The notes under the pieces are model-generated. The model ran no database searches. It saw only the letters and a program-made list of their open reading frames with translations, and had not been told where the DNA came from. From sequence record MK327941.1: a stretch of DNA of 64,000 bases; one strand, given 5' to 3'. A program made the position numbers and the translations under genes. This stretch comes from Escherichia phage vB_EcoM_G37-3. Below are positions 13,703 to 18,460 of this stretch, in pieces. The first letter of the stretch is position 1, and the number at the start of each line of letters is the position of its first letter.

Positions 13703-13730
13703 GAAAACGGGGCTTAACGCCCCCTTTTTA
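13703..13730. terminator. terminator-like hairpin between small early gene and alt
   Basis: GGGGC-TTAAC-GCCCC followed by CTTTTTA. Confidence 0.45.
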
Positions 13731-13943
13731 TTATAATGCACCATCGAGCAATTGCTCTAAGGTGTATCCTGAATAGTCTTTTTCAATCAGGATATATTTT
13801 CCTACTCGTTTAATACAACCGCGCATTTCAACATATTCTGCGTAGTTGATGGTGCGAGTTGTTCCATCTTCTAGCAAAGCAGTACCGATTTCGTTAATGC
13901 GGTCATAAGTTACGTAGGTAATGATGATTTCGATGTTAGCCAT
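13731..13943 (-). CDS. small early protein (70 aa)
   Basis: True start MANIEIII at 13943 with AAGGAG; the longer track ORF reads through the promoter. Confidence 0.6.
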   Translation of the reverse strand: MANIEIIITYVTYDRINEIGTALLEDGTTRTINYAEYVEMRGCIKRVGKYILIEKDYSGYTLEQLLDGAL

Positions 13944-13977: not shown

Positions 13978-14006
13978 ATTATAGGGGATCGATGATCCCC
14001 TGTCAA
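13978..14006 (-). promoter_or_regulatory. early sigma70-type promoter cassette (PeSL-like, palindromic spacer)
   Basis: minus strand TTGACA-GGGGATCATCGATCCCC-TATAAT, AT-rich UP region. Confidence 0.6.
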
Positions 14007-14014
14007 CAACTTTT

Positions 14015-14533
14015 TTAGTTATTTTTTAATTGCTCATCTTGCAATAGGGCAATCACATGCTGGCGATGTTCTTCCGATTGAGGCACACCGAAAAAGTTTG
14101 TTTTGTAGAAATACTCTAATCGGTCTTCTCGTGTGCTCTCTTCCATCATGATCGCGGGTAGTCCGAGATTTCGGAAACGTCGCTTTTCTGCTGGCGTAAA
14201 ATCACTGTAATACAACATAGAATCATCATTACCAGCAATGCTAAACTCATCTTTCATAAAGGAGAATATTGCGTTTAAACGCTGTTTACCGTCCACGATT
14301 TCGATCTCATAGCGAGAGCCATCATCAATCTTAGCCATTGCGATAGCACCAACCGGAAAATCATTAATCAGGTTTTCGATAAACATACGTTTGTTTTCGG
14401 TGTCCCATACCAAAGGACGCTGATAATCTGGGTTCATGTTGATATATCCATCTTCTAACCACGCCTCATAAACAGAGATGACAAAGTTTTTAGTATTGGT
14501 ATAGTAACGGCGTTTAGGCGTTAAACGGTTCAT
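14015..14533 (-). CDS. DUF262 / ParB-like nuclease domain protein (172 aa)
   Basis: PDYQRPLVW and IVDGKQRL (DGQQR-type) motifs; start MNRL at 14533 with AGGAG; last gene of 5-gene operon. Confidence 0.7.
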   Translation of the reverse strand: MNRLTPKRRYYTNTKNFVISVYEAWLEDGYINMNPDYQRPLVWDTENKRMFIENLINDFPVGAIAMAKIDDGSRYEIEIVDGKQRLNAIFSFMKDEFSIAGNDDSMLYYSDFTPAEKRRFRNLGLPAIMMEESTREDRLEYFYKTNFFGVPQSEEHRQHVIALLQDEQLKNN

Positions 14534-14534
14534 G

Positions 14535-14867
14535 TTATAGTCTCCTGAATGGATCATCACGTAAATCAATATCTTTTAAGAACTCATCCCATGAATGGCG
14601 GATATTGTTCTTAATTCTCCAGATAAGCGCAGGGATTGAACGCTCTCCCATCTGGAAGTATGGATCATATGATCCGTATGCCCAATATGCTACTACAATT
14701 CCACAATCAGAGCAATAGTATTCTATTTCACTTGCTGGCGACCAAAGTCCATCAATATGATCGGTGATCTTGCTTTCGATGTTATGGCTATGACAATCAG
14801 GGCAACGGATGCAATGACCTTGTTTATCGTAATTTGACGTTAGCGAATACTTAAACAATCTCATCAT
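14535..14867 (-). CDS. zinc-ribbon-like Cys-rich protein (110 aa)
   Basis: CIRCPDC ... CSDCG; translationally coupled to neighbours. Confidence 0.6.
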   Translation of the reverse strand: MMRLFKYSLTSNYDKQGHCIRCPDCHSHNIESKITDHIDGLWSPASEIEYYCSDCGIVVAYWAYGSYDPYFQMGERSIPALIWRIKNNIRHSWDEFLKDIDLRDDPFRRL

Positions 14868-15580
14868 AGATCCTTATTGGCTTCAAATACTGCCTTTGCG
14901 AATCCTCGCGGGGTAAGTGACCTTATAGTCTTTGTTTTCGTTCCTTTCCCGCCTAGCTTAGAATGCTGTTTACTGTACCCTTTATTAATCTGCAAAGGTT
15001 TCTTTTCTGGCATCATAAAGCCTTGTCCGGTCCATAAGCAAGTCTTTTTCGGGTACATATCACGGGCGGCAATATACTCAGGAAACGTAGGATGCTTATC
15101 ATCTTCCGGCAAATAACCGCCATATTCCCACGGATGAAACATATAATCAGGCTTACGCCACATGCTAGAGATAACGCTTACAGGATTCTCTATCATGTAG
15201 GGAACTCCTAGCCATTCACCCAAATAAGCGGTTATTTTAGCTGCCCGTACATCATGAACTTGAATCAATGGTCCTTGTTCTCGTTTCTTTCGTTCAAAGT
15301 GCGCAGCGCCACTAACAGCTAAATTGGTGCACGGTGGGAATGCAAAGATAATATCCGGTTTCCCCCATTCAAGGTCCATTGCTCTTTCCAGCCAGTTCAA
15401 ATCAATCCATGTGTTTACATAGGTAATGTTTGGATGTTCAAATCTGGTATTATACTTTTTGTATGTGCCGTGGTCGCCATCATCAGCATTAAAGCAGATC
15501 ACCTTATGACCTGCTTTAGCCCATTCTAGCCCCATTATCCCCGATCCGTCAAAGTTACAGAATATTAATTTTTGTTTCAT
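14864..15580 (-). CDS. compact C5-cytosine methyltransferase-like protein (238 aa)
   Basis: motif I-like FDGSGIMG, motif IV-like FPPCTNLAVSG (Pro-Cys nucleophile), motif VI-like ENP; no large target-recognition domain. Confidence 0.55.
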   Translation of the reverse strand: MKQKLIFCNFDGSGIMGLEWAKAGHKVICFNADDGDHGTYKKYNTRFEHPNITYVNTWIDLNWLERAMDLEWGKPDIIFAFPPCTNLAVSGAAHFERKKREQGPLIQVHDVRAAKITAYLGEWLGVPYMIENPVSVISSMWRKPDYMFHPWEYGGYLPEDDKHPTFPEYIAARDMYPKKTCLWTGQGFMMPEKKPLQINKGYSKQHSKLGGKGTKTKTIRSLTPRGFAKAVFEANKDL

Positions 15581-15822
15581 ATACGCCCCTTTAATCCAAC
15601 ACAGATTTTAGAAGGTTCTTTGCCGTGCCACATTAAGTAAAGTCCGTTAATGCGGCCTTGTTTTGTATATGATTCTTTTCTGATCTTCTTATAGTGTCGT
15701 GTTTCCTCAGCCGATTGTTTAGAATACCAATCATAAAGGAAGATGAACAAAGGCCACCCATTAGCGGCCTTAATGCAGTTATTCAAAAATTCCTTATTGC
15801 GTTTAATTAATTTTCTTTTCAC
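15577..15822 (-). CDS. hypothetical protein (81 aa)
   Basis: ORF with 4-nt overlaps to both neighbours. Confidence 0.55.
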   Translation of the reverse strand: MKRKLIKRNKEFLNNCIKAANGWPLFIFLYDWYSKQSAEETRHYKKIRKESYTKQGRINGLYLMWHGKEPSKICVGLKGRI

Positions 15823-16070
15823 GCTGCCCCCATTGGTTTGATAGTAACAGAATCTAAAAGACCTTTGTTAGCCAGTTCGCGGCAAGTTTTCAGATCCGCA
15901 ACTTCCCAACCAGCCGCAATCAGGTTATCAATCAGGCTGTTAGCAACTTCTTCGCTCATGAAAGAGCACTGTTTGCCGATGGTGTAGCGTACACGCTGTA
16001 ATTTCAGTTTACGGAAGCCTTTAACGTTCAGGTCTTTAGCGATTTTCTTTGCGGTTTCGATGTTAGCCAT
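15819..16070 (-). CDS. hypothetical protein (83 aa), first gene of operon
   Basis: ORF immediately downstream of promoter cassette. Confidence 0.6.
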   Translation of the reverse strand: MANIETAKKIAKDLNVKGFRKLKLQRVRYTIGKQCSFMSEEVANSLIDNLIAAGWEVADLKTCRELANKGLLDSVTIKPMGAA

Positions 16071-16110
16071 TGTTTGATTCTCCTAAGTGGTATCTCGTCT
16101 TGATGGTTGT

Positions 16111-16139
16111 ATTGTAGGGGAGTTATCCTCCCCTGTCAA
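16111..16139 (-). promoter_or_regulatory. early promoter cassette (PeSL-like)
   Basis: TTGACA-GGGGAGGATAACTCCCC-TACAAT on minus strand. Confidence 0.55.
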
Positions 16140-16153
16140 CACTTTTTATAAAA

Positions 16154-16321
16154 TTATTTGTTAATTTCTGGTGCGTTGCTAGGATAGTAACCTTCTTTAA
16201 CACCCAGATATTTTGCAACCATCCCTACAATCTTCTGTGCTACTACAATGTCAAATTTCAGATAATCTTCGCCGTGGGTTTCAATGATATATGCTTCACA
16301 TGCTGCTTTAGTCTCGAACAT
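16154..16321 (-). CDS. small protein (55 aa), copy 1 of duplicated gene; not in ORF track
   Basis: GGAGAATCAAA-ATG; MFETKAACEAYIIETHGEDYLKFDIVVAQKIVGMVAKYLGVKEGYYPSNAPEINK. Confidence 0.55.
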   Translation of the reverse strand: MFETKAACEAYIIETHGEDYLKFDIVVAQKIVGMVAKYLGVKEGYYPSNAPEINK

Positions 16322-17858: not shown

Positions 17859-18137
17859 TTATAAAATAATTTTTTGATATTTTTCTATGATGTTCGTGTA
17901 AGTCACATCAACCGCTAGCACCGTTGCTTCGAATCCACCGTTTAGCCAATGGCTATGATCATGATCGTGAAAGAAACCTAGACCAGTACGAAGACCTTCT
18001 TTATATTCTGCGCGTACATTCAGTTTGTCGTCGATAAACAGATAAAACCATGAATTTTTACTAGGATTGATGATACAACCTTTCAGATTAGGGAGAATAT
18101 CACGACTAAGAATAAACTTATCACCTACTTTGAGCAT
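17859..18137 (-). CDS. small protein family member (92 aa)
   Basis: start MLKVGD with GAGGAA; FYLFIDDKL ... HDHSHW ... VLAVDV. Confidence 0.6.
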   Translation of the reverse strand: MLKVGDKFILSRDILPNLKGCIINPSKNSWFYLFIDDKLNVRAEYKEGLRTGLGFFHDHDHSHWLNGGFEATVLAVDVTYTNIIEKYQKIIL

Positions 18138-18151
18138 AATATTTTCCTCAC

Positions 18152-18460
18152 TTATAAAGTTTGACCGTTGTTTTTCGCGTAATGCTGAATGCGTGCTTGA
18201 TCTGCTTCCGCTGGTGATAGATTCCATGCGATCACTACAACTTCTGACGCATCATGATCATTATCACTTACCCAATGATTATGATTCATACAATTGTTTG
18301 CTATCGCGTGAGCAAATGATCTCATTACCGGAGACGTATAATCATAGTAACGGATTTTCAGATTTTCATCAACGTACAAGTAGATCGTATACGGCTTATA
18401 TTCAGTAACCAGTAACAGACAGTTACGCAATTCTGGGAAAATCTTTTTAGTTAATTTCAT
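18152..18460 (-). CDS. small protein family member (102 aa)
   Basis: start MKLTKK with GAGGA; YLYVDENL ... NHNHW ... VIAWNL. Confidence 0.6.
   Translation of the reverse strand: MKLTKKIFPELRNCLLLVTEYKPYTIYLYVDENLKIRYYDYTSPVMRSFAHAIANNCMNHNHWVSDNDHDASEVVVIAWNLSPAEADQARIQHYAKNNGQTL

Follow-up and report, generated by a model that had tools for sequence, protein, structure and literature searches.

Escherichia phage vB_EcoM_G37-3 carries five genes packed closely behind one promoter, and the question that they raise is whether such packing denotes a single multi-protein system or a set of independent genes that are expressed together. The genes lie on the minus strand between positions 13,978 and 16,139 of a 64,000-nucleotide stretch of this genome (record MK327941.1; hereafter the window), in the hyperplastic region beside alt, and are called here g1 (15819-16070), g2 (15577-15822), g3 (14864-15580), g4 (14535-14867) and g5 (14015-14533). 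An initial annotation, made from the sequence alone, had placed them correctly in that region, had read their tight coupling as the sign of a single functional module, possibly for DNA modification or anti-restriction, and had not matched them to a described system. Our analysis indicates that the block is probably an early unit of independent accessory genes bounded by PeSLs, that is, by sigma-70-type early promoters with a stem-loop in the spacer.

The window belongs to Krischvirus, the genus of RB49-like, T4-type coliphages. Over the 2.7-kb region under study, the identity with Krischvirus RB49 (OZ035808) is 98.7%, and 56 phage records match 80% or more of this region. The five open reading frames (ORFs), from g1 to g5, correspond to RB49p190, p189.1, p189, p188 and p187.

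Linkage of the five genes outside Krischvirus

A conserved modification or anti-restriction module requires that its components co-occur across unrelated phage lineages. Linkage was assessed with tblastn at E ≤ 1e-3. Among 80 g3-centred loci from IMG/VR, which extended at most 10 kb to either side, the partners g1, g2, g4 and g5 were present only in two Krischvirus contigs; at the other loci, none of the four lay within 10 kb of the g3 homologue (0/78). The search was also centred on g5, with tonijn Dcm and the zinc-ribbon protein of JenP1 as added queries. It covered 55 loci, with flanks of at most 8 kb to either side, and recovered g3 or g4 only in the same two Krischvirus contigs, neither gene being found within 8 kb of a g5 homologue elsewhere (0/53). 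Individual records gave the same picture: no partners were found near the g5 homologue in RB43, Matisse and the P22-like phage UPF_BP1, and sp9 and JenP1 had the g4 zinc-ribbon homologue alone. In RB43 and Matisse, a gene of about 110 aa precedes the DUF262 gene; it was considered as a hidden zinc ribbon and rejected, its product being a Cys-free, membrane-anchored protein. The co-occurrence expected of a conserved module was not found in these loci. In related phages, the genes occur without this linkage, an outcome that the initial annotation had itself named as refuting its proposal, and a single functional module is not supported by these counts.

g3 and the compact phage Dcm family

The product of g3 (238 aa) was identified only through PHROGs and fold comparison: the profile phrog_757, 'DNA methyltransferase', matched residues 1-237 with an E value of 2e-90, and the protein has the fold of a C5-methyltransferase. 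The Pfam profile PF00145 (DNA_methylase), which had been proposed as a check, scored 14.6 bits, under its gathering cutoff of 22, and covered residues 10-100 only; searches of NCBIfam and of PDB sequences with g3 gave no significant match. Homologues of the phrog_757 type formed 7309 clusters of proteins of about 225-250 aa and occurred in 1523 phage genomes, mainly of Drexlerviridae, Klebsiella Webervirus, Vequintavirus and Phapecoctavirus, in addition to Krischvirus.

An alignment of 44 sequences showed which residues are under constraint. Invariant were F10, G12, S13 and G14 of motif I (F10-D-G12-S13-G14), which binds S-adenosylmethionine (SAM), the P82-P83-C84 of motif IV with its Pro-Cys nucleophile, the E131-N132-P133 of motif VI and, in the C-terminal IRSLTPRG, I219-R-S-L (219-222), R225 and G226; T223 and P224 were almost so. 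Between motifs VIII and IX, where classical C5-methyltransferases have a variable target-recognition domain of roughly 80-150 aa, g3 has merely 73 residues (146-218), and this segment is conserved (0.73 vs 0.69 for the protein average, 17 of its 73 positions being invariant). Such conservation suggests that one specificity is common to the whole compact Dcm family. The description of g3 as a C5-cytosine-methyltransferase-like protein without a large target-recognition domain is borne out by the invariant motifs and by the short segment. Overall, g3 is about 100-230 aa shorter than PF00145 enzymes such as M.HhaI and E. coli Dcm and than the catalytic domain of DNMT3A/B.

The statement that no described system matched the block is outdated as far as the methyltransferase is concerned. 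BLASTP aligned g3 with gp41 of the Warwickvirus tonijn (236 aa) at 55% identity (E 1e-93), C82, E128, K175 and K176 of gp41 corresponding to C84, E131, K178 and K179 of g3, and this type of homologue has been characterised as a self-acting phage Dcm (bioRxiv 10.1101/2023.08.16.553469). In that work on retron Ec86, four of four escapers of the Warwickvirus-like phage K42 had mutations that disrupted, or were likely to disrupt, a 711-bp dcm gene. K42 Dcm was modelled on DNMT3A and its residues C82, E128, K175 and K176 were mutated. Expressed alone from a plasmid, it increased the 5-methylcytosine (5mC) content of multicopy single-stranded DNA (msDNA), as determined by liquid chromatography-mass spectrometry, and activated the retron; moreover, a Dcm was encoded by 34 of 35 Ec86-sensitive phages (bioRxiv 10.1101/2023.08.16.553469). 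The gene for tonijn gp41 also measures 711 bp and its product has exactly C82, E128, K175 and K176; the tie between tonijn gp41-type proteins and K42 Dcm rests on this gene length, on the residue numbering and on the genus. The tonijn gene is also 99.7% identical to a gene of the BASEL phage FritzSarasin that is annotated 'Dcm-like C5 cytosine methyltransferase'.

By its sequence, g3 is thus to be placed in the experimentally validated family of compact phage Dcm proteins (phrog_757; K42, KarlJaspers, FritzSarasin and tonijn). It shares with them the length class (236-238 aa), an identity of 55% along the entire protein, the catalytic Cys, the Glu of ENP and the KK pair at equivalent positions and a structural similarity to DNMT3, and in both cases the genes are orphans with no cognate nuclease. 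Unlike the Dcm of Warwickvirus, a siphovirus, g3 resides in a T4-type myovirus and within a translationally coupled five-gene unit. We regard it as highly probable that g3 is an active C5-methyltransferase.

Target sequence and DNA modification

The CCWGG specificity of K42 Dcm was assumed from host Dcm and backed only by msDNA mutants (bioRxiv 10.1101/2023.08.16.553469). CCWGG occurs 22 times in the window, its inner cytosines making up 0.17% of all cytosines, and it is depleted (22 observed vs 65 expected, ratio 0.34). No footprint of 5mC deamination was recognizable at this site, since CTWGG products were not enriched, and CCSGG, GGCC and many 6-bp palindromes were depleted too. The depletion of CCWGG is part of a general avoidance of restriction sites and is uninformative on the specificity of g3. 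Several sites were absent from the window altogether: TCCGGA (22.9 expected), GAATTC (17.7), AAGCTT (14.1), CTGAAG (13.8), GGATCC (12.7), CCGCGG (11.3), AGCGCT (11) and AGTACT (10.2). GGCC was found 30 times vs 73 expected and CCSGG 10 times vs 30, and GATC was not avoided (343 vs 338). Such strong avoidance is consistent with a phage whose cytosines are unmodified.

In Krischvirus TB34, whose copy of the same five-gene block is 98.6% identical to that of the window, no modified nucleosides were detected (PMC13390438, 2026). The lack of detectable bulk modification fits a sparse, site-specific methylation by g3. Phage SAP, 99.96% identical to TB34, was reported to be fully modified with 5-hydroxymethylcytosine (5hmC) and glucosyl-5hmC, with no known synthase or glucosyltransferase (PMC13390438). 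Over the 9 kb that surround the block, SAP differed from TB34 only by an extra PeSL of 79 bp and by five single-base indels, all of them outside the five genes; the 79-bp duplicated PeSL (L093:3496-3574) lies between the RB49p186 homologue and g5. The possibility that the difference in modification maps to the five-gene block was rejected, the five genes being identical in the two phages.

g5, a short DUF262 protein

The product of g5 (172 aa) is a minimal, stand-alone DUF262 protein. The Pfam check, which was negative for g3, was positive here: GmrSD_N (PF03235) scored 73.2 bits vs a cutoff of 33.2 (E 4e-20). The protein has the ParB/Srx fold, so that its initial description as DUF262/ParB-like holds. 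PADLOC matched it to Menshen NsnA (E 1e-20), where only the DUF262 part, profile positions 47-188 of 385, was covered, and to PD-T4-2_A; no other defence-system component was recognized by PADLOC among the five proteins. The motifs Y37-Q-R39 (YQR..VW), D81-G-K-Q-R85 and N..G149-VPQSEEH156 (NFFGVPQSEEH) are invariant among the short relatives, which argues for a working nucleotide site. The protein ends at residue 172, and neither a C-terminal DUF1524/HNH nuclease, nor a second Pfam domain, nor an extra DNA-binding domain was found in it. PDB sequence searches with g4 and g5 returned chance matches only (e.g. the beta-clamp, E 0.3).

A word-index search for homologues returned just 7 relatives of g5, and an exhaustive HMMER search was needed to collect 6168 of them, with 447 clusters at E ≤ 1e-10. 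The nearest fall into two groups, stand-alone proteins (155-190 aa) and longer ones (250-290 aa) with a C-terminal DUF262. The latter (P0146, P0153, P0158, P0164 and similar) have about 120 aa ahead of the DUF262, and no Pfam domain was found in these N-terminal extensions. In phages, short DUF262 proteins are present in Krischvirus, Pseudotevenvirus (RB43), Slopekvirus, Karamvirus, the P22-like Lederbergvirus and others.

g5 has in common with the DUF262/GmrSD_N proteins of GmrSD, BrxU, SspE, DndB and Menshen NsnA the domain score, the DGxQR and flanking motifs and the ParB/Srx fold. Unlike these restriction enzymes and defence sensors, it is encoded by a phage and is devoid of the DUF1524/HNH nuclease, of the helical ParBDB DNA-binding domain and of partner ATPase genes. 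The Menshen (NsnABC) partners, i.e. the ABC-ATPase NsnB, the effector NsnC and ParBDB, were not found beside g5, whose neighbours are g4 and a PeSL.

A PeSL-bounded early cassette

The promoter cassette that had been noticed ahead of the five genes was confirmed. It reads TTGACA-17-TACAAT at 16139..16111, matches the consensus at 11 of 12 positions and contains a G/C stem-loop, GGGGAGGATAACTCCCC, inside its spacer; this upstream PeSL (16111..16140, minus strand) drives the five-gene block. At its other end, the block is closed by the downstream PeSL (13978..14007, minus strand), GTTGACAGGGGATCATCGATCCCCTATAAT, which is also the promoter for the gene that follows, the RB49p185 homologue (13731-13943, minus strand). 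The window has 16 sequences of the form GTTGAC-N18-TAYAAT (with at most one mismatch), every one of them on the minus strand, vs 1 expected. Between the two boundaries, no strong internal promoter or terminator was found, promoter- or terminator-like matches at 15552..15523 and 15771..15750 being within chance expectation, and an Rfam search of the region matched no RNA family.

All motifs quoted in the initial annotation (FDGSGIMG, FPPCTNLAVSG, ENP, YQRPLVW and DGKQRL) were found in the sequence. Its account of the gene junctions needs one correction. The 4-nt overlaps are there, at g1/g2 (GTGA), g2/g3 (ATGA) and g3/g4 (ATGA), but the supposed 1-nt overlap between g4 and g5 is a 1-nt gap (TAAcATG). 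A Shine-Dalgarno-like purine run precedes all five starts.

PeSLs have been described in RB49 and phi1 as strong early promoters and terminators that flank non-essential ORFans and that mediate insertions, deletions and modular shuffling (PMC2839356, Arbiol et al. 2010). The present block resembles the PeSL-bounded ORFan cassettes of the hyperplastic regions of these phages in its consensus early promoter/stem-loop flanks and in its non-essential genes, and differs from the ORFan192 and ORFan210 cassettes in that it holds five genes and not one (PMC2839356). Here too, the end-points of insertions and deletions fall inside PeSLs, as illustrated by the extra PeSL of SAP and by a deletion in MIZ4 and MIZ5. 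In these two phages, a PeSL-to-PeSL deletion of about 14018-16321 has removed the whole block together with the adjacent cassette of a 55-aa gene; in MIZ4 it joins window positions ~14017 and ~16322, both inside PeSLs, one of its end-points being the downstream PeSL of the block. The block is thus flanked by sigma-70 promoter/stem-loop repeats that contain indel end-points, as a PeSL-bounded cassette should be, and it is dispensable.

The variation within the genus was assessed in the 58 records with the Krischvirus alt gene. Of these, 56 had g1, g3, g4 and g5, and 48 had g2, which was missing from 8 of the 56; the block accordingly occurs with 5, 4 or 0 genes. In JSE-type phages, window positions 15580-15805 are precisely absent, so that g3 starts with the former GTG of g2 at the stop of g1. 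An IMG/VR contig (L004:9774-10004) is likewise devoid of g2 and has, in addition, a chimeric g1, the N-terminus of which is replaced by a sequence related to a 122-aa ORF at 17859-18227 of the window.

MIZ4 and MIZ5 were isolated from E. coli B. Retron Ec86, for which phage Dcm is a trigger, is native to the B-lineage strain E. coli BL21(DE3) (bioRxiv 10.1101/2023.08.16.553469), and the deletion in these phages could therefore be an escape from this retron; MIZ2, MIZ3 and MIZ6, also from B hosts, retain the block.

Other traces of rearrangement were seen nearby. g1 and the RB49p185 homologue, each the first gene after one of the PeSLs that flank the block, begin with an identical stretch of 16 nt, ATGGCTAACATCGAAA (peptide MANIE), at 16055-16070 and 13928-13943 of the minus strand. 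These are its only two copies in the window, vs 0.05 expected, and the pair is probably a recombination footprint left by cassette shuffling. Most Krischvirus genomes have an extra cassette of about 250 bp, with the RB49p186 homologue (59 aa) and its own PeSL, between the positions equivalent to 13943 and 14015; it is missing from the window, Sf20, KFS-EC, ECD7 and RB49 record OZ035808. Between the RB49p185 homologue and alt, at 13709-13723, lies a perfect hairpin, GGGGCTTAACGCCCC, that resembles a bidirectional terminator, T-runs being present on either strand.

The small proteins g1, g2 and g4

g1 (83 aa; phrog_14908, E 5e-59) is confined to Krischvirus, with 56 phage records by tblastn. PADLOC matched it weakly (E 2.6e-5) with the RT_UG35 (DRT) profile, over positions 722-785 of 938, which may reflect a shared small domain or chance. 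g2 (81 aa, GTG start; phrog_7065, E 6e-38), a variable insert, was found in 48 Krischvirus records and, as distant relatives, in 124 other phages (Dhakavirus, Karamvirus, T5-like). g4 (110 aa; phrog_2993, E 8e-34) is a small zinc-ribbon protein, as had been recognized, with the signature CxxCxxC...CxxC formed by C19/C22/C25 ... C52/C55 and followed by a conserved WAYG. Pfam Zn_Ribbon_TF matched it under the cutoff (E 5e-4). The word-index search with g4 yielded one near-identical (98%) protein only, and homologues are present in Guernseyvirinae, Nonagvirus and Felixounavirus. We would see in g1, g2 and g4 small early accessory proteins.

Discussion

The distribution of the five genes is best accommodated if the block is one early transcription unit of the Krischvirus hyperplastic region, set between two PeSLs and made of accessory genes that move independently and have separate evolutionary origins, which we consider likely. 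Translational coupling would then reflect the compaction typical of T4-type genomes rather than a multi-protein machine. Within this unit, g3 would be a self-sufficient orphan enzyme that uses SAM and Cys84 to form 5mC at a few sites of the replicating phage DNA early in infection. Its target would probably be of the CCWGG type and involve about 0.17% of cytosines; we give CCWGG itself about an even chance. In dcm-negative hosts, E. coli B among them, methylation of this type would protect the phage DNA from EcoRII-like restriction. Both the target sequence and this anti-restriction role are inferred, and the cost of such an enzyme would be the potential triggering of retron Ec86.

g5 is envisaged as an autonomous, nucleotide-binding protein of the ParB/Srx fold, with no effector domain and with the motifs of its nucleoside triphosphate (NTP) site under strong constraint. 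It would work without partners, either switching in an NTP-dependent, DNA-associated manner or interfering with DUF262-based sensors of the host. The second role, that of a decoy, seems unlikely to us, though not negligibly so.

Several points weigh against the independence of the five genes or against the function proposed for g3. In every one of the 56 Krischvirus records with g3, g4 and g5, the three genes follow one another directly and are translationally coupled, also where g2 has been lost, and this constant adjacency would be compatible with co-function within the genus. Very divergent partners could have been missed by tblastn at the threshold used. In the K42 study, the recognition sequence ascribed to the compact Dcm proteins came from an analogy with host Dcm and had the support of msDNA mutants only, and for the RB49 enzyme CCWGG is a putative target. 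Finally, the depletion of CCWGG would be needless if self-methylation fully protected the phage DNA.

We considered the possibility that g3 and g5 act as a pair, g3 adding 5mC and g5, possibly together with g4, serving as a decoy or inhibitor of host DUF262 systems that sense modified or foreign DNA (the type IV enzymes GmrSD/BrxU, SspE, Menshen NsnA). Short DUF262 genes do occur in accessory or anti-defence surroundings, e.g. beside abc2 in the P22-like UPF_BP1, and TB34 is insensitive to BrxU (PMC13390438). Yet this insensitivity is already accounted for by the unmodified DNA of TB34, no compact Dcm was found near a short DUF262 gene in 53 of 53 other loci, and the invariant motifs of the NTP site favour an active enzyme or switch over a passive mimic. 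Such a pair is therefore improbable. It would be an even bolder guess, to which we attach little credence, that g5, with its conserved NTP motifs and no effector domain, represents as prototype a family of phage counter-defence proteins that is widespread and that poisons or mis-signals host DUF262 sensors (GmrSD/BrxU, SspE, Dnd, Menshen), and that its co-expression with the Dcm-type methylase in Krischvirus serves to protect DNA bearing 5mC against modification-dependent restriction.

The five genes might alternatively work as an integrated three-component modification system, in which g3, devoid of a target-recognition domain, needs the zinc-ribbon protein, the DUF262 protein or both to be targeted to or loaded on DNA. 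Their co-transcription and the 4-nt start/stop overlaps speak in favour of this, as does the invariable adjacency of g3, g4 and g5 mentioned above. Fusions of ParB-like domains with methyltransferases are, besides, common in phages. On the other hand, no linkage was found beyond Krischvirus in either direction at the loci searched, the 55%-identical type of Dcm showed activity when a plasmid supplied it alone, and the highly conserved segment at the position of the target-recognition domain suggests that g3 has its own specificity determinant, so that we find such a system hard to credit.

That g3 could be the entry point of a cytosine hypermodification pathway leading to 5hmC and glucosyl-5hmC, as might be imagined from the fully modified cytosines of SAP (PMC13390438), is extremely improbable, because TB34 has canonical DNA with the same five genes, the characterised type of g3 homologue makes 5mC, a site-specific enzyme could not replace all cytosines, and the result with SAP could be trivial, e.g. 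due to a mixed stock.

Much of what underlies the reading of the block as a cassette of independent accessory genes is already known: annotations of these genes have accumulated in more than 50 Krischvirus genomes of GenBank since the sequencing of RB49, cassettes of this architecture were reported in 2010, and functional work on the methyltransferase family, which covers its role as a trigger of retron Ec86, dates from 2023. The only element with some potential for discovery is the family of short DUF262 proteins, which is found in T4-like and P22-like phages and is a reasonable anti-defence candidate. The natural variants JSE, without g2, and MIZ4 and MIZ5, without the block, are ready, isogenic-like tools for the study of these genes. 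A practical consequence is that RB49-type phages, which commonly serve as controls with 'unmodified cytosine', possess an early enzyme of the Dcm type by which sparse 5mC may be introduced into their DNA, and this could alter their sensitivity to EcoRII-type and McrBC-type enzymes and to retron Ec86.

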